Shown here in pieces: positions 3,406 to 18,100 of a stretch of DNA of 51,434 bases. Every line of letters begins with the position of its first letter. Within the stretch, counting starts at the first letter, position 1. The position numbers and the translations under genes are program-made. The notes beneath the pieces were generated by a model. That model made no database searches. It had not been told where the DNA came from and worked only from the letters and a program-made list of their open reading frames with translations. Source of the stretch: an uncultured bacterium (lineage in GTDB: Bacteria > Armatimonadota > Hebobacteria > CAIYQO01); assembly GCA_964573385.1 (NCBI GenBank), contig CAZNLA010000001.1:1-51434 (forward strand), given 5' to 3'.

Positions 3406-4701
3406 ATGAAATACTTATTGCTTACAGTGGGTGGATCCTATCAACCGTTAGTGAGAGCTATTACCACATTAGAACCAGATCATGTCGTGTTTTTATGTTC
3501 AAAAGACACAACCGAAGGCAAAGGATCATACACACAAGTTACGGGTGCAGGACTGGTGTGTGGTGGCAGACCCGGGCAACCTGCAGACCAACCATGCATA
3601 CCTGCTCAAACTGGTTTAGCTCCAGACCAATATAACTTATCAATCTATGATATTGACCCCGATGATTTGAGTGATTGTTATAGTAAATGTGCAAATGTTA
3701 TACAACAGATACGCGCAAATGATTCACAGGCAAATATATACGCAGATTATACCGGCAGTACTAAATCAATGTCAGCAGGTTTGGCGTGTGCGGCATTAGA
3801 TGATGGTAAGATAAATATTATGTTGGTGACCGGTTTTCGACCAAACCTGGTTGCAGTACAGGATGGTTGCGAATTTCTTACTCGTGCTAAGGTTGAATCA
3901 GTTATTTTATTACGGATAAAAAAAGAGATAAACAGGTTATTAAAATCTTATGATTACGCATCAGCAGAGAAAGTATTGCGTGTTTACCTGTCTGACACAA
4001 CTAATAACATGGTAAGTGAATGGTTGGCTATTTGTAAGGCTTTTGATGCCTGGGATAGGTTCGACCATAAATCTGCCATAAAATTCCTGAATTCAACTAA
4101 AAAGTATCCCAAACATATAGCATTTCTTGGTAAATTAGAGGATATTATAACTGCTGATGCTGGTAAAGTTGAAGATAAAGATGCGGTAGAACCTAACCCG
4201 AAGATTGGATTTATGCTGGTTACAGATATTTTAGCGAATGCTCGCAGAAGGGCCAGTCAGGGACGATATGATGATGCCATAGGCCGACATTACAGAGCAG
4301 TTGAATTAATAGCGCAAACATTGTTATTGGTTAAGTGTGGGATAAAAACAAGTGAATGTCCTGTTGCTGAAATACCTGCGGAATGGATGTGGAAGATAGA
4401 CGAAGGGCAAACTGAGATTAAATTAGGATTAATGAAATCATGGGAATTAACGGCTTATAAATGTCCAGAAATTGCTGAACAATATAAATTATTTAAATCA
4501 CAATTATTAAGTGCTATTGAACGAAGAAATATGAGCCTTTTTGCACATGGTACAGTTCCAATAAATAAACAAGATTATGAAGATGATGTTAAAAACGGAA
4601 TGGCCGCATTTGCAGATATGATATTAAAAATAATAGCGAAAGATAAGAAAATTACTCCTCCGGATATGTTTTCTCCGGATTTTGTAACAGAATTAGAATG
4701 A
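3406..4701 (+). CDS. CARF-HEPN protein, Cas02710 (TIGR02710)-like type III CRISPR accessory effector
   Basis: 431-aa ORF. The N-terminus has the CARF-type start MKYLLLTVGGSYQP and DYTGSTKSMSAG (DxTGGTK-like). The C-terminus has ANARRRASQGRYDDAIGRHYRAVE and ERRNMSLFAHG (Rx4-6H HEPN-type motif, nt 4522-4551). The family is recalled from memory, not searched. Confidence 0.7.
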   Translation: MKYLLLTVGGSYQPLVRAITTLEPDHVVFLCSKDTTEGKGSYTQVTGAGLVCGGRPGQPADQPCIPAQTGLAPDQYNLSIYDIDPDDLSDCYSKCANVIQQIRANDSQANIYADYTGSTKSMSAGLACAALDDGKINIMLVTGFRPNLVAVQDGCEFLTRAKVESVILLRIKKEINRLLKSYDYASAEKVLRVYLSDTTNNMVSEWLAICKAFDAWDRFDHKSAIKFLNSTKKYPKHIAFLGKLEDIITADAGKVEDKDAVEPNPKIGFMLVTDILANARRRASQGRYDDAIGRHYRAVELIAQTLLLVKCGIKTSECPVAEIPAEWMWKIDEGQTEIKLGLMKSWELTAYKCPEIAEQYKLFKSQLLSAIERRNMSLFAHGTVPINKQDYEDDVKNGMAAFADMILKIIAKDKKITPPDMFSPDFVTELE

Positions 4702-4711
4702 CGGTTTACTT

Positions 4712-6220
4712 ATGACTATTGATAAAAAAACAGCTTTAATATTGTTTGCGTCAGAACAGGTGTGGCCAAATCTGCTAAGTATAGAGTGGTATCACCAAAA
4801 CGCTAATTTAACCAATGTGTATATATACCACACAAATGATGAACAACGATCGGCAATGCCTGCACAGAGAATAAAAAAGTTTTGCGAACTTCAATATCCT
4901 GACCTGCAATGCGTAATGCCCATAGATGGTATGCCAATGACACCGGATAAAGTTGTTGAGCAGGTATCAGCATGGTATGACGGAAATCAAGAGATATCGA
5001 ATTGGGTTATAAATGCTACTGGTGGTACAAAATTAATATTTGCCGGTGCGGTTAATACATTAATAATGCAAAATAGATTAAGAAAATGGGATTTTATTTA
5101 CTGTGAGTTGGGTGGATGGTATGGTTTGTCCCTTGATTTGTTGGGGTTGATAATCGCTGATAAAATGGATGGAAAATTTATCCCCTTTGATACACTAAAT
5201 AATGTGCCACTGCTTAATCTTATTAAAACACAATTTCAAAGTAAAGATGATTTGATATGGTATGCAGGGACAAAAGAGATATTTACATCAATCAGCATGG
5301 ATAATATGAGAACTATGCTGAGTCTGGGTGAATCGGAGAATTGGAATTGGAAAAAGCTATTTCAACAAATTGATGTTAACCCGGAAAATACATCAAGTGG
5401 TTTATTATTTGAACAATTCATTGCGGCTTCAATAATGTTGATAGGATTAGATAAAAGTCAAATCGACATAAATGTTGTTTCTAAAAGTAAAGAACATGGG
5501 AATGTGCAGCAAGAAATTGATGTTATAGTAAATAATAACGGCCGATTGATTATCTTTGATTGTAAATTAAAAGATGTAGATTCGGAAAGTGATGCTTTTA
5601 TAACACATATAAAAGCATCACATGATACCACGCAAATGTTAGGAGGATTAAATGCTCAATGTGTAATGATTCGTCCTAACAGAATTGTAAATGATGAAGA
5701 AAAGTTGATTGCATCCGCTTGGCGAGTGAAAATACTGGGACTAAGTGAGTGTAAAAACTTATTTACGGAAATTGGCAAAATAATTCAGATAAATCCACCG
5801 GAAGATATGCTTGCTGTGGAGCAACTTTATTTAAATGACTATAGCATAAAACCCATATTGGTTCCTATTAAAGAATCGGAACGACTTATGGCAGATGACC
5901 AACATATTCTTAGGATTAATTCTATACAGACTTATTTTCAACGAGTAAATTGTTGGGAAAATATAGGATGGGTATCAATAGAGGTCGGGTCAAATATTTG
6001 GATAATCAGAGATGTTTTCTGTGGGATTAAAGATTTTAACAGAACTGATAAAAGGATAGCTTTGGTAAATATGCTTACACAGATATGTGATAATTATCAA
6101 ATAACAATTAGTAAGACAGGAATTTCATGGTATGCTATTATTTTTATTAATAATGATGATAAAAGAAAAGCATTCAATATCTGGATAGATGACAGTGCAA
6201 CAAATCATAATTTGTTATAA
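4712..6220 (+). CDS. Can2/Card1-like CARF + PD-(D/E)xK nuclease with an extra C-terminal region
   Basis: 502-aa ORF. ALILFASEQVWPNLL and INATGGTKLIFAG are DUF1887/Card1-type CARF motifs. The nuclease motif is QQEIDVIV-x8-LIIFDCKLKD (nt 5513-5575). About 150 C-terminal aa carry no motif I recognise. Confidence 0.7.
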   Translation: MTIDKKTALILFASEQVWPNLLSIEWYHQNANLTNVYIYHTNDEQRSAMPAQRIKKFCELQYPDLQCVMPIDGMPMTPDKVVEQVSAWYDGNQEISNWVINATGGTKLIFAGAVNTLIMQNRLRKWDFIYCELGGWYGLSLDLLGLIIADKMDGKFIPFDTLNNVPLLNLIKTQFQSKDDLIWYAGTKEIFTSISMDNMRTMLSLGESENWNWKKLFQQIDVNPENTSSGLLFEQFIAASIMLIGLDKSQIDINVVSKSKEHGNVQQEIDVIVNNNGRLIIFDCKLKDVDSESDAFITHIKASHDTTQMLGGLNAQCVMIRPNRIVNDEEKLIASAWRVKILGLSECKNLFTEIGKIIQINPPEDMLAVEQLYLNDYSIKPILVPIKESERLMADDQHILRINSIQTYFQRVNCWENIGWVSIEVGSNIWIIRDVFCGIKDFNRTDKRIALVNMLTQICDNYQITISKTGISWYAIIFINNDDKRKAFNIWIDDSATNHNLL

Positions 6221-6255
6221 TTTGTTAAGGAAATTCAAAATAGAAGGAGCAAATA

Positions 6256-6588
6256 ATGTCGGAACCAGTTATAAAAATAACAGATGTAAAAGTGACCGAA
6301 ACGATTATGCCGGTCAAGCAGATTTCTTTTGAGATACCTGGTGGGAACACCACACCACAGGAGTTTGCTACCGCAGTTTCAAAAATGCCTGAGGTAAGTG
6401 GTAGAAATATAATACTTATAGAAGGCAGAGGGCCTATTTGGGGGTATGGTATGATAATGCATAAAGCACATGCTACCACCGCTATTGGCTGTTTTGATCC
6501 GCGCCTTGAAGGCTATGTAGTTGTGCAGTCGCATAATGACAGTATTGTTGTTGGTCAAATGCTAACGCTGATTTTGAAGGGTGAATAA
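6256..6588 (+). CDS. csx3: Csx3 (Crn3) ring nuclease
   Basis: 110-aa ORF with SD AAGGAG. IILIEGRGPIWGYGMIMHKAH...AIGCFDPRLEGYVVVQSH matches the Csx3 core pattern (GRGPiW ... DPRL.gyvVv.SH). Confidence 0.8.
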   Translation: MSEPVIKITDVKVTETIMPVKQISFEIPGGNTTPQEFATAVSKMPEVSGRNIILIEGRGPIWGYGMIMHKAHATTAIGCFDPRLEGYVVVQSHNDSIVVGQMLTLILKGE

Positions 6589-6590
6589 AG

Positions 6591-7538
6591 ATGTTAGATG
6601 TAATAAAAAGTAAATTTGGAAATCTGAAAAGCTTAATGAAGAAAAATAGAGACGCTATTTGCATAGTGTTTCTCGTTTTGGGCAACCTTACAATTGCCGA
6701 TTTTGTAACAGAAGGTTTAAAAAAGATATTTTCATTCCTTTTTGCTGAACAAAAGCCTACAGTATATTTTACTGTAGAAAATTTCTGGTTATATTTTACA
6801 ACAATTGTTTCAATATTCATATTTGTATGGTTCTCTTTTATGATTTATAAACTTAAAGAGAGTTTTACCAGAGTTAGAACATTGGAATTATATGAAAGTA
6901 GAAAACCGCACAAAGGATTAATAATATTATTGTCAACACCCACCATGGGTATTAATGTAACATTTAATACCGGTATTCAGTTGTGGAGTATTAATAATAA
7001 AGGTACATCTGTTGATTTTAATGGTCAAAGTTTAGACGATGATGTTGAAGCACTGGCGTTATCACCAATAGGTTGTAATTGGGAGATGTTAATGCGAGGA
7101 ATAAATGCAAATTTACCTAAATTGGAAAAAGTAATTTTGATTTGCTCTGCTGTTGGGAAGAAACCAAATGGGGACCCATTACCAGGATCGGTATCAAATT
7201 ATGAAGATGCGAAGCAAATAATAGACCATTACACCATGCCCAATGATGAGGTTTCTATTGTCACAAAATTTCCTGATGATATGAACGGGGTTGATTTTGA
7301 GGATTTGGATGCATTGACCCATGTGTTGCAAGATGCTATTGACTATCTTCATCATAAATGTCAAATACCTCACCGGGAAATACTTATTGATGTTACCGGA
7401 GGACAGAAAGTTACCAGTATTGCCGGTGCTTTGATTACTTTAAAGAATGAAGTGAAGATTCAGTATGTTCCAACAGGGAACACAAACACAATTAAGTTGT
7501 ATAACACTGTCATGGAAGACGCACCTGACATGGGATGA
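6591..7538 (+). CDS. Membrane-anchored CARF protein (Cam1-like architecture: 2 TM helices + CARF)
   Basis: 315-aa ORF that starts 3 nt after the csx3 stop. The TM segments are AICIVFLVLGNLTIADFV and FWLYFTTIVSIFIFVWFSFMIY. The CARF-like elements are HKGLIILLSTP, VILICSAVG and LIDVTGGQKVTSIAGAL (nt ~7386-7420). Confidence 0.6.
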   Translation: MLDVIKSKFGNLKSLMKKNRDAICIVFLVLGNLTIADFVTEGLKKIFSFLFAEQKPTVYFTVENFWLYFTTIVSIFIFVWFSFMIYKLKESFTRVRTLELYESRKPHKGLIILLSTPTMGINVTFNTGIQLWSINNKGTSVDFNGQSLDDDVEALALSPIGCNWEMLMRGINANLPKLEKVILICSAVGKKPNGDPLPGSVSNYEDAKQIIDHYTMPNDEVSIVTKFPDDMNGVDFEDLDALTHVLQDAIDYLHHKCQIPHREILIDVTGGQKVTSIAGALITLKNEVKIQYVPTGNTNTIKLYNTVMEDAPDMG

Positions 7539-7697
7539 TAAATTATAAAAAAAGAATATAAATTAGTTCTGAATATTATATTTGGTGCATTATTAGTCGC
7601 ATTTTTCCCTGCGGTATGGGGTGCGTTTTGCTATTATTTAATTGCATTACCATCGCGTGTTTCCATTAGCATACTAATTGTCGGTATTATAATTGGC

Positions 7698-8279
7698 ATG
7701 ATTGCAGATGGCTTGTTGCGACGTTTTATGCCGAGTTTTGAAGTTTGGGAGCATGAGTTGACTCATGCGCTGGTAGGTTTGCTGTTTGGCATAATACCTG
7801 TAAAAATAGTTGTAAAAAAAGGAGAAGGCGGAATAGTAAGGCATAAAATCTACACACCGGATTGTCTTTATCCACTGGCTATAGATTTTGTATCGCTTGC
7901 ACCATATGTCTTACCAACGATAACTTTTCTAATGGTGGTATTTCGTCCAATTATTCATAGAGATACTATATCATGCTACGATTTTTTTATTGGACTATCT
8001 TTTGGATATCATATTCTTAGCACAATTCGGGAGTTTAAAAGTAGTTGGACATTAAAGAAATTCCCGAGTGCAGATACGGGTGAATTAATAAATTCAGATA
8101 TTGCTAAAACAGGAATTATATTCTCTACCATATATATTTGTACTGTAACGTTAGCCATCCATGGTGTTATGCTTGCAATAATGATAAAAGGTTATACAGG
8201 AATTAAAGGATGGGCAATACATGTATGGGAACCGACAATAAAGTTACTTGCGTCTATTGCCTCAACATTAGTGCGGTAA
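7698..8279 (+). CDS. Polytopic membrane protein with an HExxH zincin motif (putative membrane metalloprotease)
   Basis: WEHELTHALVG (HELTH at nt 7752-7766) plus several hydrophobic helices. The frame is open back to 7542 and encodes two more hydrophobic helices, but there is no ATG/GTG/TTG there, so the true start is probably upstream and non-canonical. Confidence 0.6.
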   Translation: MIADGLLRRFMPSFEVWEHELTHALVGLLFGIIPVKIVVKKGEGGIVRHKIYTPDCLYPLAIDFVSLAPYVLPTITFLMVVFRPIIHRDTISCYDFFIGLSFGYHILSTIREFKSSWTLKKFPSADTGELINSDIAKTGIIFSTIYICTVTLAIHGVMLAIMIKGYTGIKGWAIHVWEPTIKLLASIASTLVR

Positions 8280-8590
8280 TCTTAAATCGAATTTATGCTG
8301 ATAATATTAGCACAGAGGTTTCTCGCATAATGGTAATCTGTTGAACTTGTCGAAGCGAGAGTTCTGTAACTTAAAGTATCTCATAATTTTTGATAAAAAA
8401 TTAAATTATTGAAACTAAGAACTGTTTTGTAAAACATTTGAGATATTAAATATATATTTTTTTCTTTATATATTTAAAAAAATATTATGATTCTAAATTA
8501 GTAGACATTTACAGTATTTCTTATGTATAATTCAATAGCGCAAGGATAAGTGTTATTTATATAAACTTTTATATAATATGGGACAAAATA

Positions 8591-11500
8591 ATGTTAAATC
8601 GGCATTGGAGCTTTAATGGTATAATATTTACCATCGTAATATTTTTTACGATGGTGTCTCCTGTTGTTTATGGCGGTGATTTCAAACTTACTGACCCCAA
8701 TCACTATATAATTCTTGTTGATGCCAGTGGTAGCACTGTTCAAAACCAGGTAATTAGATCAGCATATTACAGTGCCGCATCAAAGTTAGTTAAAAATTTA
8801 TTCGAAGATGGGTTTAAACAGGAAGATACTAATATTCCCCGTTTTAAAACAGGCCGTGATTATCTGACGATTTATAATTTTGGTATCGGAAATGGTGGTA
8901 CCAGCAATGCTTATCAACAGATAAAATATTTTTACGATTACTCTTTACAGTATTTACATCCTATTTGCGAGGCAAATAAGAATGTGTCTCAGGATTGGGT
9001 TAAGTCAGTAATTTTCCCGAAGAAAACTTACAACTACTCAATTTATTCATGGGCAAAACCATTAGGACTGGAACATGCGGGTCAAGCAGCACAGAATCTG
9101 CGTATTGCCCATACATACCTTATTGTATTGACAGACGCAAAGCCAAATGGCATTTCTTTAAGTGATGAAGTAATTGAAATTGAACGATTTTCCAATAAAA
9201 AATCACGTGATCAGGAACGTTCAGTGCGTCGTGAAATAGCAAACGGATATTTTTGGGGATTACAATCTGGTGTTGAAGGGCTGGCATATGAGAAGCGAAT
9301 TACAAATAAATTGTCAGGTAGTGCCTGTGACATCTTTATCGAAGGATTTGAGGTTTTTTCCCGTGAACGTCAGCAATATCGATCTTCAGCAAAAGCTTTT
9401 GAACCGTTATCTGCTGCTAATATTCATTGGGTCGAGGACCGTGATGAAGACCCGGTAATAGTTGTTTCTTTGCCAATTTCACCGGAATTTAATAATTGGC
9501 ATGGTAACCTTTCGTCTTTGCAATATTGTCTGCATATCGGATCTGATAATTATGAATGGAACCAGCAAAATGTAAAAAATAACAAGGTTAAAATAACTTT
9601 GAATGGGAAAGCGCCTAAAGGCGGGAGCCTGTTCCTGGACCTATTCTCCAGACGTCTGGAGTCGGATAATATTCTTGGAGAAAGTGCCGTTAATTATCAT
9701 TGGCGTAGTAACATTATACTTCCAGACCGACCCAGTCAAACAATTTGGAATAAGACACAAAGAGCGCTAATAGTTATTGGGTTTATTTTACTCGCTGTTA
9801 TCATAGCATTATTAGTATATTTCGGTGTGTTTTTTCCACATGCATCATTCCTTGTTAATTCATGTGGCAAAGCATTTACTTTGGAATACGGTAATAAATA
9901 TCCAAATTTATCAATATTGGCTCCCAGGCATACCGATGAAATTGTTTTAAAGGTAAAATTAATTCACCCCATTTTACAATGGTTATTTGGGTGGTTACGC
10001 CAGGAGTCTATACAGATAAAATCTACAGATGGTAAAATAATATGGGCCATTCAGGATATGCCTGAAATACTAAAACTGCCATATAATTATAATACTGCAC
10101 ATGCCCAGTGGCAACAATTGCCATCAAAAGAAATTAAAATAGTCATCATCCATAAAGTTTATGGTAAGGAGATAACCCGTATGATTGATGTTACTCGAAA
10201 TGAAGCTATTAATGCGCCGGTAAACAATGGACTACTTGACCATATAATCTCGTTAGACCTTGGTTCAGAATCTATTGCTGCCGCGTATTTCAATACTCAA
10301 CTAGGCGGTGCTCAGGTTATTAATTTACAGGATGTAGCAACAGATTATTATACAGGTAATTTGGTTTATTATTTAAATAACAATTTAAAATCAAATAGGA
10401 TGAAGACCAAGATACAACTAATGGATAATGTAGTACCTGTTAATATCCCGCATTCACATGCAGATATTCTGTTACAGAATATAGCAAATGATTGTTTGTT
10501 TAAATATTTTCAACAGGCAGGATATGGTGGAACAATAAAAAAATGGATGCCAAATCCAAAAGTACTTTTCATGCGAGGTGCCGATAAGAATTTCTTGCCA
10601 TTTGTCAAATCAACGACTCCTGACAGTTATGTGAAAATGCCTCCAGAGACTTTGATTTCACATCTTATAGTACAAATAGTTAATAATTTTGTTATCCCAG
10701 CCCTTTATAATCAGATGTTCAATAATAACAACAATACAATAGCTAATACTGTTTGTTATAATTCAATTCCTAAAGAATCAATCCATCTGGTTATTACAGT
10801 TCCCAATGTTTATAGTTGTATGCATGTTAAAAAAATAATTGATTTTGTTAAAGGCAGATTAGGTTTTGGGGAAGTTACGTCATTATACGAATCTGAAGCA
10901 GTTTCACATTATATTTTGAACTCTAAAACACCAGAGAAAATAGGGACAGGTTTTGGTGACGCAAAAAACCCTTATATCCTTACAATTGATGTCGGTAAAG
11001 GTACGACAGATTTGTCTCTTGGACAACGCAAACTTGCTAGTGATAATAGGCAATATGCTGAATTAGCCAGAACTGGTATCTCTAGCGGTGGTAGCAGGCT
11101 TGATTATATTATTGTTAATCACTTAGAGGAAGTAATTAAATCTGTTTTTAAAAAATATGGTAAAGATTTAGTCGATACAGATACACCGCGGATTAGTTTG
11201 TTACGTGAGTCTGGTGGTACAGAGGTTACTGAAGTAATTACTGTTTTAACAGAAGGTATTCCAAGTAGTGATGGTGGTTTATTACTTGATTTAAAACGTT
11301 CAATGGATGAATATTTTTGTATCAACAGAGATATACTTTCTATAGAGAAACACCGTGAATATGCATTGGAAATTGCTAAAATATATTTAAAGAGTATGGG
11401 ACTCAATAAATTTTTTGGTAGAAATATTTCAGTTGATAAATTTAAAAAAGCATTAGTTTTTCGCGAAATCCTAACACGTTCATTATTATATTGTATAAAC

Positions 11501-12811
11501 GATAAGATTTTATCGTTTGGGAACTTAAAAGATAGGATTGATATATTTAATGAATTTTTACTAAATCTACTAAATAAATCACAGAATGTTAAATTAAATT
11601 ATGATATTAATGATATGAATGTATTCATGTCAAATAACGCAGACTTTGTGAAAGCATGTGAATATTTGAAAAAGAGAGTTAATTTGATTGACAGTTTAAT
11701 AGATTTAGATATAGACAATACAAAAACTCAGATAAATGATGCATATAAAGCAAGTACAGATGAGATAAAGCCTGTAGATGAAATACATATTCAAACTTTC
11801 ATAACATCACTTACAAAATTAAAACAAATTGCACAAAGTTTTTCATGGCAAACAAGCACATACGGTAAATTGATTGATGGAATGCAAAATAACTTTATTT
11901 TTGAAAATATTAATGAATATAAAAAAATGATTTCACAGATAGATGAATTAAATGATGATACTACTTATGCTGTTTTAATAAGAAGAATATTAGACAGTAA
12001 TAAAAAAGTTTTTGAAAATCTAATACCAATATTTAATATATTAATAGCAAAGGATCATCATGTCTATTTTACTAAAACTATCAAATCATTTGATGATATG
12101 ATAATTTTATATGAGAAATTAGCGAAAATGAAGTTTAATTGTGCATTTTCTCCTGAAAGACAGGTGAAAAACAACTTTAAAGACTCATTGAAAAATTATA
12201 TTAATTGTTCTATAAATGATCAGAAAGATAATCTATTTACAATGTTAGAATTATCAACAGGTGGAAAATTTAACAATATGAAAGATAACTTATATGTTGT
12301 AGTAGCTGGTCAGGCTTCTCAATTTAAACCTGTCAGAAAAGCGATTAAAGATATACATGGAGGGGCGTTTTTTCTGGAAGGAGATGAATCTAAAGATGCG
12401 TGTTGTTTAGGAGCAGTTTACCATATTGTTAATATGAACACTCGTCCTAATGCCAATTATCTATTTGGTGAATATGGAGTATATGATACCCAGATTGGTC
12501 CTGGTAGATATAAAAGGATATCTACATTAAGTTTAAACTCTCATCCGCATCAGGCTGAGGTTACCTTTGATAATAGTGCAGGTCGTTCTGTTATATTTTC
12601 AACACGAATTACTCAAGGTGATGAAGCACCTGATATCGAGGATAATATGACAGCAGTCATTATGCCAGTATCAGGGAAAAGTTATAATTTTGAGTATGAT
12701 CCTAAAAATCTAAATATTATTGTAAATGGCAAAGTTTTAGATCCATGTGCGGTAGGAAATGTAGATAAGAAAATTTATGAAAACTTATGGCCAGAGCAAT
12801 TACGCAAATGA
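8591..12811 (+). CDS. Giant vWA - TM - Hsp70/actin-fold ATPase fusion protein
   Basis: 1406 aa. The N-terminal signal/anchor is IIFTIVIFFTMVSPVVYG. The vWA MIDAS-like motif is YIILVDASGST (nt ~8720). The TM segment is ALIVIGFILLAVIIALLVYFGVFF. Hsp70-type motifs are ISLDLGSESIAAAY (phosphate 1, nt ~10254), LVITVPNVYS...YESEAVSHY, LTIDVGKGTTDLS (phosphate 2, nt ~10982), SSGGSRLDYIIVNHL and VVVAGQASQFKPVRKAI (nt ~12298). A long Asn/Lys-rich helical insert is present. Confidence 0.65.
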   Translation: MLNRHWSFNGIIFTIVIFFTMVSPVVYGGDFKLTDPNHYIILVDASGSTVQNQVIRSAYYSAASKLVKNLFEDGFKQEDTNIPRFKTGRDYLTIYNFGIGNGGTSNAYQQIKYFYDYSLQYLHPICEANKNVSQDWVKSVIFPKKTYNYSIYSWAKPLGLEHAGQAAQNLRIAHTYLIVLTDAKPNGISLSDEVIEIERFSNKKSRDQERSVRREIANGYFWGLQSGVEGLAYEKRITNKLSGSACDIFIEGFEVFSRERQQYRSSAKAFEPLSAANIHWVEDRDEDPVIVVSLPISPEFNNWHGNLSSLQYCLHIGSDNYEWNQQNVKNNKVKITLNGKAPKGGSLFLDLFSRRLESDNILGESAVNYHWRSNIILPDRPSQTIWNKTQRALIVIGFILLAVIIALLVYFGVFFPHASFLVNSCGKAFTLEYGNKYPNLSILAPRHTDEIVLKVKLIHPILQWLFGWLRQESIQIKSTDGKIIWAIQDMPEILKLPYNYNTAHAQWQQLPSKEIKIVIIHKVYGKEITRMIDVTRNEAINAPVNNGLLDHIISLDLGSESIAAAYFNTQLGGAQVINLQDVATDYYTGNLVYYLNNNLKSNRMKTKIQLMDNVVPVNIPHSHADILLQNIANDCLFKYFQQAGYGGTIKKWMPNPKVLFMRGADKNFLPFVKSTTPDSYVKMPPETLISHLIVQIVNNFVIPALYNQMFNNNNNTIANTVCYNSIPKESIHLVITVPNVYSCMHVKKIIDFVKGRLGFGEVTSLYESEAVSHYILNSKTPEKIGTGFGDAKNPYILTIDVGKGTTDLSLGQRKLASDNRQYAELARTGISSGGSRLDYIIVNHLEEVIKSVFKKYGKDLVDTDTPRISLLRESGGTEVTEVITVLTEGIPSSDGGLLLDLKRSMDEYFCINRDILSIEKHREYALEIAKIYLKSMGLNKFFGRNISVDKFKKALVFREILTRSLLYCINDKILSFGNLKDRIDIFNEFLLNLLNKSQNVKLNYDINDMNVFMSNNADFVKACEYLKKRVNLIDSLIDLDIDNTKTQINDAYKASTDEIKPVDEIHIQTFITSLTKLKQIAQSFSWQTSTYGKLIDGMQNNFIFENINEYKKMISQIDELNDDTTYAVLIRRILDSNKKVFENLIPIFNILIAKDHHVYFTKTIKSFDDMIILYEKLAKMKFNCAFSPERQVKNNFKDSLKNYINCSINDQKDNLFTMLELSTGGKFNNMKDNLYVVVAGQASQFKPVRKAIKDIHGGAFFLEGDESKDACCLGAVYHIVNMNTRPNANYLFGEYGVYDTQIGPGRYKRISTLSLNSHPHQAEVTFDNSAGRSVIFSTRITQGDEAPDIEDNMTAVIMPVSGKSYNFEYDPKNLNIIVNGKVLDPCAVGNVDKKIYENLWPEQLRK

Positions 12812-12822
12812 GGGATATATAA

Positions 12823-15066
12823 ATGCGAAAATTAATAATTAATTTATTTACTATGAAATATTTTATAATCTGCCTGATTATTCATTGTGTATCTGTAGTA
12901 CTATCAGTTGCAGCAACCCAACCCAGGTTGATATCTGTTGTACCTGGCGTAGGTTCAGATTCGATTCCATATACAATTAATATTTATATTGCTGTTAAGA
13001 AAAGCAATACAGATATTACCAAAAAAAGTAATGTCGAATTATGGTCAAAAAATGATGATAAGAAATTAGAACCTGATAAAAATAATGATAATGGGTATGT
13101 TTACGATTATGCCCCAGAAAAATCTAAGAGTTCAACATCTAAGTTTAAACTGATTATAAATATGTTAGAACCGAATTCCATTGCCGATGTTAATATTAAA
13201 ATAGAACAAAAAGGTGAGTTTACATTATATGTTGATGGCATTCTTATAGACGAGAAAACAAATATTTGGAATATAAAATTTAAACAAGACTATGCTAATA
13301 AAATTGAAAATGAAATCGTAACAAATAATATAGGAACTATAAATACTGATGAATCAACCAAGCTTGACACAATGCCGATTGGATATGCCGTTATTATTTT
13401 AATTATTACTATGATAGTTTTTTTTAGTATAATATTTATACAACAGCAGAAAAATGAAAACCAACATGCTTTTATCAAGAAGATTGGTGAGATGTTATAT
13501 GATGAGATATCTATTTTTGAAAAATATGAAAAGAAAAAAAATAATATTTCTGAAGCAAATTCTTTAACAACATTGAATCTTCGATGCAAATTTAGGCACA
13601 ATAATATATGCAGCAATAACAACGTTGATTTATCATTTCTTTCAAAGATAGTTTCATGCCTAATTAATCCTGTTTCTGATAGTGAAGAAGCAGATTCTAA
13701 TAAAGAAATAAAATTTAATATTTTTAATAGAATTTTAAAAATATTAAATGTAACCAAATGTGATGATACGGAGCAGTTATCGTCATTATTCTTCCAGAAG
13801 CAAGATTCAACTAATAATACCACTACAGATTTTCTTAAATATTTATTAGAAACTGTCAAAAACGAATCCAATCTTTTAGATGAAAGTAATGAAGCCATTA
13901 AGCCTATTACAAATAATGAAGATATTAATCCTATAACTAATAATGAAGTAAAGACTACTGGTACACTTTTTCATAATTTAGATTTTAATAAACAAATTGA
14001 TGAACTTTTAATCATTTTAACAGGGCATCAATTATATAGCAATAGTTCCAAGTTGATATCAATAGGTCATATTACTGAAATATTAAAAAAATTAAAGGAA
14101 TTAACACCTGATTCTCCAAATGATAGAGTTAAACATAAATATGATTATTACCTAGAGAAATTACTTAAAAATAATGATATGCATACTATGATGCATTTTT
14201 TTGTGTTAGATGTAACTAAAAAATATAATTTAAATATTTTTGATAAGGATGAGTTAATACAAAAGATAGAAAAATCAATTCAGATAGAAAATGATTGGAT
14301 ATCATGTAATATTCTAATAAATAAAAATGTAAATTATAAAGATGTCACATCTATCAAAGAATTTTATAAGAAGGTTACGGTTGAAATAAATACATTAACT
14401 GCAAATTCAAAAAGATTTGAAGAAGAAAATGACGAATATAGAAAATTAATTTCAGAAGAAAAGATAAAAATACAATCGTTACAGGATAAGATTAAAGAAA
14501 GTGAAAATAAAACTCAAACTAACGATCAAAGATATGCAAAATTATATCTTACATATGAACAAATTAATGAAATAAATAATGAAAATAAAAAAATAAGTCA
14601 ATTAATTCAACATGCTTTAAATTTTAGTAGTAATATTAATAGTTATTATAAAAATGAATCAGTATTTTTCGCAGTTTATTATTTAATGTTTTTTAACATT
14701 GTAAACTTAAGTAAAATCATAAATGATATTGATTGGCCAAATAACAAATATGCAATGAAAGCAATTCCTGTGTTTAAATTTAATATAATTAAATTGATTG
14801 ATAGAAACTATGATGATAATAATCTTGATGAAATTGTCAAATCTATTTTGAAAACTACCCAATCTATAGGTTCCAGTTATGGTGCTCATACATGGGCTGA
14901 GGATGAGTTACTAGTTCCTCCGGGAACGAACAAAATGCCATATCATGATGACATTTGTAATGCAATGGAAATCATCAACAGTGAGACACGAAGACATCAT
15001 CACCCGTTGTTTCTTAATTTTAATTTAGAAATAGTAGACAACGACATATATATAGCCAATGCTTAA
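12823..15066 (+). CDS. Asn/Lys-rich single-pass membrane protein with a predicted coiled-coil cytoplasmic region
   Basis: 747 aa. Signal-like N-terminus FIICLIIHCVSVVLSVAA and TM segment IGYAVIILIITMIVFFSIIFI. There are heptad-like stretches such as RFEEENDEYRKLISEEKIKIQSLQDKIKESENK. It starts 11 nt after the previous stop. I recognise no family. Confidence 0.5.
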   Translation: MRKLIINLFTMKYFIICLIIHCVSVVLSVAATQPRLISVVPGVGSDSIPYTINIYIAVKKSNTDITKKSNVELWSKNDDKKLEPDKNNDNGYVYDYAPEKSKSSTSKFKLIINMLEPNSIADVNIKIEQKGEFTLYVDGILIDEKTNIWNIKFKQDYANKIENEIVTNNIGTINTDESTKLDTMPIGYAVIILIITMIVFFSIIFIQQQKNENQHAFIKKIGEMLYDEISIFEKYEKKKNNISEANSLTTLNLRCKFRHNNICSNNNVDLSFLSKIVSCLINPVSDSEEADSNKEIKFNIFNRILKILNVTKCDDTEQLSSLFFQKQDSTNNTTTDFLKYLLETVKNESNLLDESNEAIKPITNNEDINPITNNEVKTTGTLFHNLDFNKQIDELLIILTGHQLYSNSSKLISIGHITEILKKLKELTPDSPNDRVKHKYDYYLEKLLKNNDMHTMMHFFVLDVTKKYNLNIFDKDELIQKIEKSIQIENDWISCNILINKNVNYKDVTSIKEFYKKVTVEINTLTANSKRFEEENDEYRKLISEEKIKIQSLQDKIKESENKTQTNDQRYAKLYLTYEQINEINNENKKISQLIQHALNFSSNINSYYKNESVFFAVYYLMFFNIVNLSKIINDIDWPNNKYAMKAIPVFKFNIIKLIDRNYDDNNLDEIVKSILKTTQSIGSSYGAHTWAEDELLVPPGTNKMPYHDDICNAMEIINSETRRHHHPLFLNFNLEIVDNDIYIANA

Positions 15067-15121
15067 GAATCGGGATTAAATACAATTAATACTGGTGATG
15101 AAATGTCACAAGAGGAGCATC

Positions 15122-18100
15122 ATGAATAATTTTCTTTACTTTGTTAAACAATATTACTTACTTATAGTAGTTGTTTTAATTGCAGGAATTTGTATCAAAT
15201 TATTAGTAAGTTCGACAACTTTAGAAATAGTGATTGTTTGCATATTATCAATGATGATGTTAATTTATCTTGTTAAAAACGAGTGTGCTATAGATGTGAA
15301 GATGTTATATGCGTATATATTCTTTGTATTTATAGTTGGGTCATTATTGCTATATAATCATTTAGGTGGCTTTTCTGCTAATTCTCCATTAATTAATGAC
15401 CGTATAGAACAAAGGTTATCATTTTTAGGTTTTTATGCTAAAGACAATACTTTTACGATATCTAATGGAGAATCATCTAAACAAGACGCATTTAATATTA
15501 GTGGTATGCAACAAAAAACATCTGGTTTGTCAGAAATATCGCTTACACCTGATGTTAAAAATGGTGAGACATCATCATGGGATATCAATGCCAAACCTAT
15601 AGATTATTGGAAATATCCGTTACGAATAAATAATAAATGTATAAATATAAATAAAAATAATATTTTAAAGGACAATTCGGTAATATCTTTTCGTTTACCT
15701 GGGCGTAATGATGTTGCAAGGTTAGTATATAAGTCAGATAAGTGGCATGAAGAATTAAAATATTTTGATAACGAGAAATATATTACAACAATTTCATTAA
15801 GAAATATTTTTACACGATTTAAATTAAAAGATGCGATGTCATTGGGTAATTTGTTAAGTAGAGCAGAAAAACAGATGTTTACTGGTACATGGAAGAAAGA
15901 TGGAAAAGTACCATTACTTACACAAGAAGAATATGCACCCATCCTAAAATCTTTAATAGTCAGGATAAATAAAGGTGATGCAAATAGTAATCTAACATTA
16001 TTTCCACCGGATATAAGTGAAACCAATAATGTTCCGGAAATATTTATAGACAAAAAAAGTTATGATATGACAAATAGTTTATCATCATTTTACACTAAAA
16101 ATATTCCGGTATTATCTTCTAATCAGAATATGAAGTTGATATATGGCATAGATCAAAATAAAAGTTTTAGTATGACATTACCGTCTAAACTAGTTCGCAA
16201 CCCACAATATCCTGGTCAAAAGTTTCTTTATTATTTATTTTCTACCCCTATAAAGTATCCTTTACCACCGGATATTATAAATTCCTTTTTCATTTCAAAT
16301 ACAGAAAAAGGATTTGCGGTAGATGGTATTTTACTACCTGCTGAAAATCTGGTTGTTCCTATTTATGCAAGAGGAGATTTTGATAAAGAAAATAACCTGA
16401 TTATTAAAGATGGTCAAACAACTGCCCAATACATATTAAATGATAAGGTACTATTAGGCAAACCAAATCTTGGTTTAGTATTGTCCGCCGGTCGCACTGA
16501 ATTGCCATCTTTTCTTGGCATTTCACCGGGAATCCTGGCTATTATATTATTCGCAATCTCTAGTTTCTTATTTTGTGTTGCTATTTCTTTCCGCAATAAA
16601 ACAACGGACACAAAAACTTTATCAATAATAGTTTTATTATGGGGATTAACAGCAATCATACTTATATTTAGATTGATAATTGGTTACAGGGCAGCATTGC
16701 TTCCTCCATTTGATGCCTATGCATCAGAGCTGGGTCATTTTGAAAAATCATACACTTTAAGTCTGTGGACACTACTTTTTATACCATCTTTATTAGCAAT
16801 AATTACAGTTGTCAAAACTAATTTTATAGAAAAAATCTTAATTTCAATATCCGGATTGAAATTATTTTTACATAAGATTGCTTTTATTGAAAAAATATTA
16901 AAATGTTTTAACAGTATATATAAAGGACAAAACCCAGTTTATTATATGAGAGTACTAATAATTATTATTAGTATTGCTTTCATAGGGATTGTCTCTAAAA
17001 TAAATAACAATGAGTTTCTCTTTCTAGGACAAGCATCATTAATTTTGTATATTGCTATTGTGCTCTCGTTATTCTGGGTGATGGAGTTTATGTTAAATTC
17101 ACCTACTAAAATGCAATGGTTGTGGTTTTTATTAATAATAGTCGAAGTATGTATTTTTTGGGGTATAGTTGACCCCGGTGCGTTAGTAATTTATTCTTTA
17201 TCAATTATACCAGTAATATTTTTTATTATTCTTGCTAATATCAAAATAACTGCGTCTCGAAAAAATCCATACACATCAACTCGTTGGGCAATTGTCGCGG
17301 TAATATTTTTGTTTATTTTATTCGTTTCTTTACCAAAACTAATTGCGAGTTCAAACAATGAAAAATGGTATGGTAATACTGCTGTTTATTACAGATGCTG
17401 GTTGTTAGGTGATAACGTAAATGATTTATTAACATCACCTAAATATCAAGATATGATTACTAAAGAGAAAAATTTTACCATTTTATCACGAAATCGTCAG
17501 CAAATGTGGCAGATGTTATGTTATGCGTCTGCTGGCAGACATTGCGATACCAAATATGGTTCTGCCCCATTAGCCCGTCAGGGAATGGATTATAAAACAA
17601 CACTGGTCGATTCTGTATATTCTACTTTTATATTAAGTGAACATGGAGTATTAATAGGTTGGTGTTTATCGTTTGTCTTTATAGTATTAGCGTCTATTTT
17701 GGTTTATTCTGCATATAAATTATCGTGTGCAAGGAATATTAACATCCGAGCCAGGGCACCAATTTTATTGATGATAGCTGGTTATTTTCTGTTTAATTCT
17801 TTGTATATGGCTAGTGCTAATTTGAATATGGTTGTATTCACAGGTCAAAATATTCCATTTTTAGGTGTACGGTCATTAGGAGATTTGTTTCAGGCAGGAT
17901 TTTTACTGTTGTTATCAGCATTCTTAATTACTTATAAAATGGATAAGATGTTAATAAATCAAAATCAAAATCAATCTTATTATAAAAAAGCATGGAGCGG
18001 GATAGGTATTTTTGGTGTGATAGCATTTTTATGGTATTTGGGTATAGGGGTAGTGTTAATGAAATTACCTGATAATTATACTCAACCAAATAATATTTTT

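Follow-up and report, generated by a model that had tools for sequence, protein, structure and literature searches.

An undescribed membrane protein joining a vWA domain to a divergent Hsp70-type ATPase, and the gene cassette in which it is found

P0001 and its domains

The stretch of DNA analyzed here, called the window, is 51,434 nucleotides long (positions 1 to 51,434 of the forward strand of contig CAZNLA010000001.1, GenBank assembly GCA_964573385.1) and comes from an uncultured member of the Armatimonadota. At positions 8591-12811 on its + strand, an open reading frame (ORF) remains open for 1406 codons from an ATG and encodes P0001, a protein of 1406 aa and the first of three genes in an operon. 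P0001 is an undescribed membrane protein that combines a von Willebrand factor A (vWA) domain, predicted to be periplasmic, with a very divergent Hsp70-type ATPase, predicted to lie inside the cell. From the N terminus, it consists of a Sec-like segment, a vWA domain with a complete metal ion-dependent adhesion site (MIDAS), a beta-rich domain, a transmembrane (TM) helix, a second beta-rich domain, the ATPase, and a C-terminal domain. The gene and its parts are as follows.

8591..12811, + strand: whole P0001 gene (vWA-TM-Hsp70-like ATPase), gene 1 of 3 in the operon, from ORF calls and homologues
8612..8674, + strand: N-terminal hydrophobic segment (residues 8-28), by hydrophobicity and homologues either a signal peptide of the Sec type or a signal anchor
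8690..9376, + strand: vWA domain (residues ~34-262) with D44-x-S46-x-S48, S150, and D182, from hhalign with co-aligned motifs; placed in the periplasm by prediction
9398..9745, + strand: beta-rich domain (residues ~270-385) separating the vWA domain from the TM helix, possibly Ig/FN3-like; weak, from modeled strands at a predicted local distance difference test (pLDDT) score of 60-80
9767..9835, + strand: single central TM helix (residues 393-415), Kyte-Doolittle 3.24, in all 21 long homologues
9842..10225, + strand: juxtamembrane beta-rich domain (residues ~418-545), predicted cytoplasmic, from the model, conservation, and split loci
10238..11170, + strand: ATPase from phosphate-1 to phosphate-2, with DLGSES 556-561, K657, TVPNVYS 736-742, E767, DVGKGTTD 800-807, and GG 833-834, from profiles
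11171..12190, + strand: enlarged helical variable region (residues ~861-1200), from low-confidence helices and conservation
12263..12445, + strand: adenosine-motif region (residues ~1225-1285), VVAGQASQF plus K1268 / CC / G1274-A-V, from invariant columns
12446..12808, + strand: conserved C-terminal domain (residues ~1286-1406) ending in N-x-W-P-E-x-L, from columns conserved in homologues

An initial annotation, made from the sequence without database searches, had read this gene as a single 1406-aa polypeptide. That reading holds, as the frame is open, full-length homologues exist, and the family has about 135 representatives; by this comparative evidence the ORF is a genuine gene. Two of the full-length homologues are metagenomic, share 30 to 32% identity with P0001, and conserve its motifs. 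The overall architecture proposed in the initial annotation is likewise upheld. The motifs that it quoted lie where it had placed them (VDASGST with D44, S46, and S48; DLGSES at 556-561; DVGKGTTD at 800-807; AGQASQF at 1239-1245), LTD182 is present as well, and the 21 long and 40 short family members show little or no variation at any of these sites.

The vWA domain was assigned by comparing a 21-sequence profile of residues 30-270 with an alignment of 26 VWA_2 domains from relatives of the window genome. The hhalign probability was 93.9% in local mode (E 1.6e-7) and 95.3% in global mode (E 6.6e-9), against at most 0.6% for reversed and unrelated template controls. At a lower alignment threshold, the match spans beta1 with its DxSxS, alpha1, beta2, the MIDAS Thr loop, and the "TDG" strand that holds D182. 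The MIDAS residues thus occur in the right order: DxSxS, then S150 (Thr in most of the 21 homologues), then D182 in "LTD." The vWA-like domain with a DxSxS motif that had been proposed from the sequence is therefore supported. The Pfam VWA and VWA_2 models were reached neither by P0001 at E ≤0.1 nor by 33 family members at E ≤0.01, and the only PDB sequence match for the region was VWA2 5a8j at E 0.71. The model of residues 37-255 consists of alternating strands and helices, at low confidence (mean pLDDT, 56).

The motifs of an Hsp70- or actin-fold ATPase, which the initial annotation had also recognized, lie C-terminal to the TM helix. Because D556, G558, K657, E767, D800, G802, G804, T805, D807, G833-G834, and G1240 are invariant or nearly so in 33 to 40 members, the nucleotide-binding site looks intact. 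A 40-sequence profile of the ATPase, searched against all PDB sequences, gave 27 matches at E ≤1, and 21 of these were DnaK/Hsp70-type chaperones. DnaK provided the only matches below E 0.1 (best E, 7e-4, in an alignment that crosses phosphate-2), the remaining proteins (NOP5/NOP56, ARP8, and two others) all lying at E ≥0.22. From phosphate-1 to past phosphate-2, hhalign gave 69% for the Hsp70 nucleotide-binding domain (E 4.4e-5, 227 columns), 54% for MreB, and 0.2% for a reversed template; another comparison gave 48% for Hsp70 and 32% for MreB, so that the margin of Hsp70 over MreB is modest in both. Four of the 33 members of the family alignment reach Pfam HSP70 (PF00012; best E, 2.4e-17), and one NCBI record calls a family member "heat shock protein." P0001 itself lies below the Pfam and NCBIfam Hsp70 thresholds, and the kinase-fused member P0029 scores 14 to 15 bits against PF00012, under the cutoff of 20.6.

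K657 (in PNPK) and E767 (in (Y)ES(D/E)A) follow one another in an order and with a spacing that we take to be those of the Hsp70 catalytic Lys and Glu; the catalytic Asp, Lys, and Glu presumably correspond to DnaK D8, K70, and E171, as judged from the alignment. The distance from phosphate-2 to the adenosine motif is about 140 aa in DnaK, ~230 to 290 aa in other members of the family, and ~430 aa in P0001. No Hsp70 substrate-binding domain was detected, the C-terminal domain giving an hhalign probability of 0.1% against full-length Hsp70. No DnaJ or GrpE model matched the two other operon products, P0002 and P0003, or any of the five coiled-coil middle genes scanned at homologous loci. Judged by these profiles and motifs, the ATPase of P0001 is an Hsp70-like member of the ASKHA (acetate and sugar kinases/Hsc70/actin) superfamily, not a canonical Hsp70. 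The initial annotation had named a failure of profile searches to support either the vWA or the ATPase assignment as the outcome that would count against it; both assignments survived this check.

Both of the membrane segments suggested earlier, an N-terminal anchor and a central TM helix, are present in P0001, where the hydrophobic stretches span residues 8-26 and 393-411, and in 21 of 21 long homologues. The N termini of these 21 proteins have a basic n-region, an h-region, and AxA-like ends and so resemble Sec signals. Summed over the same proteins, the 15 residues flanking the TM helix hold 45 Lys and Arg after it and 30 before it. From the Sec-like N termini, the single TM helix, this charge bias, and the need of the ATPase for cytoplasmic ATP, we infer that the vWA and adjoining beta-rich domains are periplasmic and that the juxtamembrane domain and the ATPase are cytoplasmic. 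The earlier proposal that the vWA domain and the ATPase lie on opposite sides of the membrane is supported to the same degree.

Other parts of P0001 are less easily related to known proteins. The protein has no Pfam match at E ≤0.1 and none in NCBIfam, single-sequence and three-sequence PDB searches gave nothing significant, and a 21-sequence full-length profile matched PDB more weakly than the ATPase-only profile did. The juxtamembrane, beta-rich, adenosine-motif, and C-terminal regions matched none of the templates tried with hhalign. Of two structures predicted from three-sequence alignments, that of the ATPase part reached a pLDDT of 33 and that of the N-terminal part a mean of 56, and Foldseek searches with the N-terminal model gave only Ig/FN3-like tandem matches (TM-scores of ~0.1 to 0.3), for the beta region beside the vWA domain.

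Two details of the initial annotation need adjusting. What it called an Asn/Lys-rich helical insert is indeed a helical, variable region (residues ~861-1200), but Asn and Lys make up 18% of it versus 16% of P0001 as a whole, and it is present in every family member, with insertions private to P0001 at 981-1061 and 1119-1177. What it called a beta-rich C terminus is a conserved, family-specific domain of ~120 to 150 aa with a W-P-E motif at its end, whose strands appear only in the low-confidence model.

The family, the cassette, and its variants

An exhaustive phmmer search with residues 540-1406 against 1.84 billion proteins, with representatives taken at 50% identity, revealed a rare family of about 135 representatives, 64 of them with E <1e-30. 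They fall into two length classes, ~670 to 750 aa (the ATPase alone) and ~1150 to 1380 aa (with an N-terminal extension bearing DxSxS). An early scan of GTDB with a three-sequence alignment had found no relatives; pattern scans of GTDB genomes then added 20 loci, and those of JGI metagenomes another 21. The named carriers are Armatimonadota (including Fimbriimonadales and Chthonomonas), Abditibacteriota, Acidobacteriota, Aminicenantes, Ignavibacteriota, and Bacteroidota (Rhodothermales and Bacteroidia). None of the 40 relatives of the window genome that were searched has the P0001 gene. Within the window genome, the family profile found the gene itself and one weak ORF (C35:15421-17937, - strand, E 5e-4). 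The genome also has ordinary DnaK paralogs; its Hsp70-family ORFs (contigs C343, C175, C11, and C5) number at least five, including ORFs of 842 and 1033 aa, which is more than most of its relatives have. It also contains one T9SS tail, and no photosynthetic reaction center was found in it.

The two halves of P0001 are separate adjacent genes, one for a vWA-TM protein and one for the ATPase, in most loci (at least 14), whereas a single fused gene is seen in the window and ten more times elsewhere. The juxtamembrane domain forms the C-terminal end of the vWA-TM protein at the split loci. In a maximum-likelihood tree of 31 ATPase domains (three rows whose phosphate-1 fell outside the pattern were left out), fused and split states interleave, at least three changes being forced by well-supported branches, and the window ATPase groups with those of loci L004 and L001 at 100/99 support. 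By the Rosetta-stone argument, which takes repeated fusion and fission of neighbors as a sign of physical interaction, this history is good evidence that the vWA-TM protein and the ATPase would work as one functional unit.

The three genes of the operon are spaced closely, with 11 nt between P0001 and P0002 and 28 nt between P0002 and P0003.

12823..15066, + strand: P0002, 747 aa, a bitopic or hairpin membrane protein whose position is conserved and whose sequence is not
15095..20545, + strand: P0003, 1816 aa, a fusion of a SEDS protein (named for shape, elongation, division, and sporulation) and a class B penicillin-binding protein (bPBP), from a PDB profile, SEDS hhalign, and topology

The genes of the two closest homologues of P0001 are followed by a gene for a 594- to 749-aa protein without similarity to P0002 and then by a ~1780-aa homologue of P0003; P0003 aligns with its homologue over the full length (26% identity, E 5e-128). 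More generally, the cassette consists of vWA-TM (~540 aa), ATPase (~680 to 850 aa), a variable helical or coiled-coil membrane protein (450 to 840 aa), and a P0003-like protein (1650 to 1900 aa), in this order. The P0003-like gene is present in 30 of the 32 loci with at least ~2.4 kb of downstream DNA, across five or more phyla. The flanks of the cassette are unrelated from locus to locus, so that it is self-contained; they are mostly housekeeping genes, with no family occurring more than three times among 127 flanking genes. No enrichment of defense islands was found around 30 cassettes, where defense genes were few (Septu in 2 of the 127). PADLOC gave no significant model for P0001, P0002, or P0003, its sole listed match for P0001 being PDC-M61B at E 0.011.

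P0003 goes unannotated because the Pfam models FTSW_RODA_SPOVE and Transpeptidase do not match it. It begins with a TM hairpin and a domain of ~370 aa; a polytopic core of SEDS type comes next, and a linker resembling a pedestal joins this to a class B PBP transpeptidase. A 16-sequence profile of P0003 matched FtsI, PBP3, and PBP2 in PDB at E 1e-6 around the SxxK serine. S1423-T-I-K1426 (SxxK) and K1733-T-G are invariant in the 16 homologues, and the middle (SxN) motif is tentatively the invariant S1492 in "SRD." Against 25 ordinary SEDS proteins, the core gave an hhalign probability of 96% (E 4.5e-9, 318 to 343 of 356 columns; reversed control, 0.4%), and the invariant D839 aligned with the SEDS "TD.IF" motif. 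The extra N-terminal domain is probably periplasmic, since the loop between the two N-terminal helices is strongly basic and the topology of SEDS proteins agrees with this placement; the same charges and topology make an FHA-like cytoplasmic N-domain, which we also considered, unlikely. This domain (within 15095-16594, residues 1-500) is beta-rich, has a conserved "P-L-P-P," and has no detectable relatives. P0002 consists of a periplasmic loop of ~150 aa and a cytoplasmic part of ~540 aa that is helical or coiled-coil.

The window genome carries ordinary copies of the same machinery, namely three SEDS proteins, four PBP transpeptidases over the Pfam cutoff, and two MreB proteins, which marks the cassette as an extra. 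Given these copies and the absence of the module from the 40 relatives, it is accessory and was probably acquired.

Rare variants depart from the common plan. In P0017 and P0153, the Hsp70-like ATPase is preceded by a TIR domain, and cassettes with such a TIR-ATPase are found at L151:10001-16385, L152:6397-14682, and L153:1-4807. The P0017 locus (L152) encodes the TIR-ATPase, a vWA-TM protein, an ATPase without a TIR domain, and a coiled-coil protein; the next 7 kb contain no SEDS-bPBP gene. The P0153 locus encodes a vWA-TM protein, the TIR-ATPase, and a coiled-coil protein. An Aminicenantes metagenome-assembled genome (MAG) has a paralog that joins a Ser/Thr kinase to the ATPase directly after the SEDS-bPBP gene (L065:19780-22038), and fusions of the ATPase family to SEFIR and HEAT are also present. 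In the tree, each TIR or kinase paralog pairs as sister with the plain ATPase encoded at its own locus, which suggests that they may join the same oligomer.

Some further features of these loci are recorded here for completeness. Upstream in L152 there are also genes for a Tubulin_2 protein and an OmpA-domain protein, and a 1046-aa kinase-containing protein is encoded upstream of the cassette in L143 and L145. The Chthonomonas calidirosea MAG has two members before its SEDS-bPBP gene (L073:3311-18671), a very divergent fused protein of 1492 aa and an 863-aa ATPase with an N-terminal extension of its own. A Rhodothermales locus (L069:8080-18046) has vWA-TM and ATPase genes and no detectable SEDS-bPBP within 10 kb; its downstream genes instead encode proteins of 641, 392, 457, and 332 aa.

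Around the window operon itself, a 312-nt AT-rich gap 5' of P0001 contains the best promoter-like match of the region.

8502..8531, + strand: sigma-70-like promoter candidate, TAGACA-18-TATAAT, 11/12 matches, positional evidence only

Promoter-like sites in this region are no more numerous than the shuffled expectation. Farther upstream, at 3406-8279, is a type III CRISPR accessory set composed of a Csm6-type CARF-HEPN protein, a Card1-like CARF-nuclease, and a TM-CARF protein, with a small membrane protein that has a faint M50B-like match after the CARF genes. Downstream of the operon are genes for an 8xMP protein and an ABC transporter, together with another operon that is rich in receivers and possibly defensive. 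The 8xMP gene (octameric membrane protein family, PF24838, E 6.9e-9) lies at 20737-21135, 191 nt past the operon, and its adjacency to the cassette is not conserved at other loci.

A possible role in the control of wall synthesis

The reading that we favor, and whose chances we rate as evenly balanced, is that P0001 spans the membrane as one subunit of an accessory peptidoglycan-synthase module, in which it controls the synthase or acts as a scaffold. It draws on the domain assignments, the catalytic residues of P0003, the synteny in 30 of 32 loci, the history of fusion, the tight packing of the operon, and the topology. The initial annotation had suggested that this protein signals or scaffolds and is not a chaperone, which agrees with the conserved operon partners, the missing substrate-binding domain, and the lack of DnaJ or GrpE matches in P0002 and P0003.

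Under this proposal, a Sec-type signal would export the vWA and beta-rich domains to the periplasm, and the single TM helix would anchor them there, while everything beyond the helix (juxtamembrane domain, ATPase, and C-terminal domain) would remain in the cytoplasm. Binding and hydrolysis of ATP by the Hsp70-type domain would alter its shape or its oligomeric state, perhaps with participation of the coiled-coil partner, and this state would be relayed through the TM helix to the vWA domain. The metal site of the MIDAS might then bind an acidic residue of the periplasmic domains of the synthase, or a carboxylate of peptidoglycan, and this engagement could switch on, position, or hold the SEDS polymerase and the transpeptidase.

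Several points weigh against such a role. The contact between the vWA domain and the synthase is hypothetical, and the structure models are of low confidence (pLDDT, 33 and 56). The Hsp70 assignment depends on moderate profile scores (69%), with P0001 itself lacking a Pfam or NCBIfam match. P0001's own TM-flanking Lys and Arg (3 before, 0 after) are contrary to the proposed orientation, which only the family total favors. The window operon has as neighbors a type III CRISPR accessory operon on one side and, on the other, a receiver-rich operon that may be defensive. Finally, the synthase-free variants (L069 and L152) and the TIR- and kinase-fused paralogs fit a general sensor-switch at least as well.

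The last of these points leads to an alternative that we regard as unlikely but serious. The vWA-TM protein, the ATPase, and the coiled-coil protein could form the core of a trans-envelope switch in conflict or stress, with an exchangeable output: the vWA domain would respond to an envelope insult (phage, lytic enzymes, or damage to the wall), and the ATPase would oligomerize and trigger wall repair or thickening (SEDS-bPBP), NAD depletion (TIR), or phosphorylation (Ser/Thr kinase). TIR-ATPases do occur in loci with vWA-TM and coiled-coil genes, one of them (L152) without a SEDS-bPBP in the 7 kb scanned; a kinase-ATPase follows the synthase in L065, kinases lie upstream in L143 and L145, and SEFIR and HEAT fusions add to the range. 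The sister relationship of these paralogs to the ATPase of their own locus suggests hetero-oligomers. CARF effectors of type III CRISPR and the receiver-rich operon are the neighbors in the window, the distribution is sporadic and looks horizontal, and systems of vWA and NTPase in "ternary" arrangements are a known theme in conflict (PMC7159879). However, a synthase with conserved catalytic residues in 30 of 32 loci would be unusual for a suicide-type effector, the 127 flanking genes are mostly housekeeping and not defense-enriched, none of the three proteins matches a PADLOC model significantly, and the TIR variants are a small minority. A broader version, which we hold only speculatively and think doubtful, is that these loci represent a prokaryotic "integrin"-like modular trans-envelope switch with exchangeable outputs, in which a single helix would link a periplasmic MIDAS domain to an actin-fold ATPase in the cytoplasm and the window operon would serve envelope surveillance, meeting phage attack or wall damage with inducible, localized peptidoglycan synthesis.

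It is very unlikely, in our estimation, that the ATPase is a dedicated assembly chaperone for the giant 1800-aa synthase, with the vWA-TM part only tethering it near its client or near the translocon. In favor of this, Hsp70 chaperones are the nearest relatives that could be detected, vWA proteins act as co-chaperone adaptors for MoxR ATPases (PMC7159879), and the candidate client is unusually large and always co-encoded. Yet no substrate-binding domain or lid is detectable, and the DnaJ and GrpE models found no match in P0002, P0003, or the five homologous middle genes, the homologous synthases not having been scanned. The genome has ordinary DnaK paralogs, a periplasmic MIDAS conserved across the family would be needless for a mere tether, and the synthase-free variants retain the ATPase.

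The idea that the ATPase is a filament-forming actin, related to MreB or FtsA and laying down a membrane cytoskeleton that guides the synthase, with the Hsp70 likeness reflecting only the shared ASKHA fold, is a long shot: MreB profile similarity is only slightly lower than that of Hsp70 (54% versus 69%; 32% versus 48%), and the logic of the operon mirrors MreB-RodA-PBP2 and FtsA-FtsWI, but actin-family proteins contribute only two ARP8 entries (E 0.47 to 0.49) and no MreB, FtsA, or ParM to a set of PDB matches in which 21 of 27 are Hsp70-type, K657 and E767 have what we take to be the Hsp70 catalytic order and spacing, and known actins have nothing like the helical region of 340 aa or the extra C-terminal domain. 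The discovery of new actin families in bacteria continues; one of these, FcmB, was considered and set aside, as it is ParM-derived and unrelated to the ATPase of P0001 (PMC12645912).

SEDS-bPBP synthases are core cell-wall machines and major antibiotic targets. To our knowledge, all known control of these synthases runs through MreB or FtsA cytoskeletons and their adaptors. If P0001 does control the synthase encoded beside it, the cassette would represent an independent solution for switching on wall synthesis from the cytoplasm, an Hsp70-fold ATPase would be serving as a transmembrane signaling device, and a compact three-gene system would be available for reconstitution in studies of SEDS-bPBP activation. 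The TIR and kinase variants hint at reuse of the same switch in bacterial immunity.

Comparison with known systems

Full-text searches of the literature found no description of the architecture of P0001 or of the cassette. With no family in Pfam, NCBIfam, or PADLOC either, the remark in the initial annotation that this is not a characterized family is borne out. The cassette is a complete, portable module made of a single-chain SEDS-bPBP, a membrane-tethered Hsp70-type ATPase, and a periplasmic MIDAS. To the initial annotation, the present work adds controlled profile tests, the topology argument, the history of fused and split forms, the locus-by-locus linkage to the synthase, and the TIR and kinase variants.

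The ATPase shares with the Hsp70 nucleotide-binding domain (PF00012, ASKHA) a collinear series of DxGxxx, TVP.(Y/V), E-(P/S)-x-A, DxGxGTxD, GG, and adenosine-type motifs. It differs in ~100 to 110 extra loop residues in lobe I, in a ~340-aa helical region at the position of subdomain IIB, in being tethered to the membrane, in having no detectable substrate-binding domain, and in having no DnaJ or GrpE among the cassette genes scanned. The vWA domain has in common with other MIDAS-bearing vWA domains (integrin I-domains, BatA/BatB-type VWA_2 proteins, and TerY) the DxSxS...T/S...D series on a beta-alpha-beta core. Unlike them, it falls below the Pfam thresholds and has large insertions between beta2 and the Thr loop. 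It is also coupled, covalently or genetically, to an Hsp70-like ATPase across the membrane and not to a MoxR AAA+ partner.

Kaur, Burroughs, Iyer, and Aravind (2020; PMC7159879) described vWA-MoxR ternary systems and conflict systems with DO-GTPases, tubulins, and HSP70. Those systems resemble the cassette in combining a vWA protein, an NTPase switch, and a third component with variable effectors such as TIR, and some have membrane vWA proteins with beta-rich domains. Their HSP70s, in contrast, are canonical and accompanied by GrpE and DnaJ, and the paper makes no mention of FtsW, penicillin, or transpeptidase. Conversely, no MoxR AAA+, DO-GTPase, or GAP1 match was found in P0002 or P0003, and no AAA+ or GTPase was found in the five homologous middle genes scanned.

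FtsEX-EnvC and integrins are functional analogues only, in that each uses TM helices to couple a cytoplasmic module, linked to nucleotide or to the cytoskeleton, to an extracytoplasmic binding domain (a MIDAS vWA domain in integrins). The ATPases of FtsEX-EnvC and P0001 are not homologous (ABC versus ASKHA), and the coupling in P0001 is a proposed one. FtsA/FtsN-FtsWI, MreB/RodZ/MreC-RodA-PBP2, and FtsEX-EnvC follow a similar logic with parts unrelated to those of the cassette. There is a parallel in composition with the elongasome (MreB/RodZ/MreC-RodA-PBP2) and the divisome (FtsA/FtsN/FtsQLB-FtsW-FtsI), which likewise bring together an actin-fold ATPase, bitopic proteins of coiled-coil type, and a SEDS protein with its bPBP. 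The cassette differs from both in that its ATPase is Hsp70-like and tethered through a periplasmic vWA protein, and its SEDS and bPBP form one chain of 1750 to 1900 aa with an extra ~370-aa N-terminal domain. It is, moreover, an accessory module of patchy distribution, carried by a genome that keeps the ordinary copies as well.

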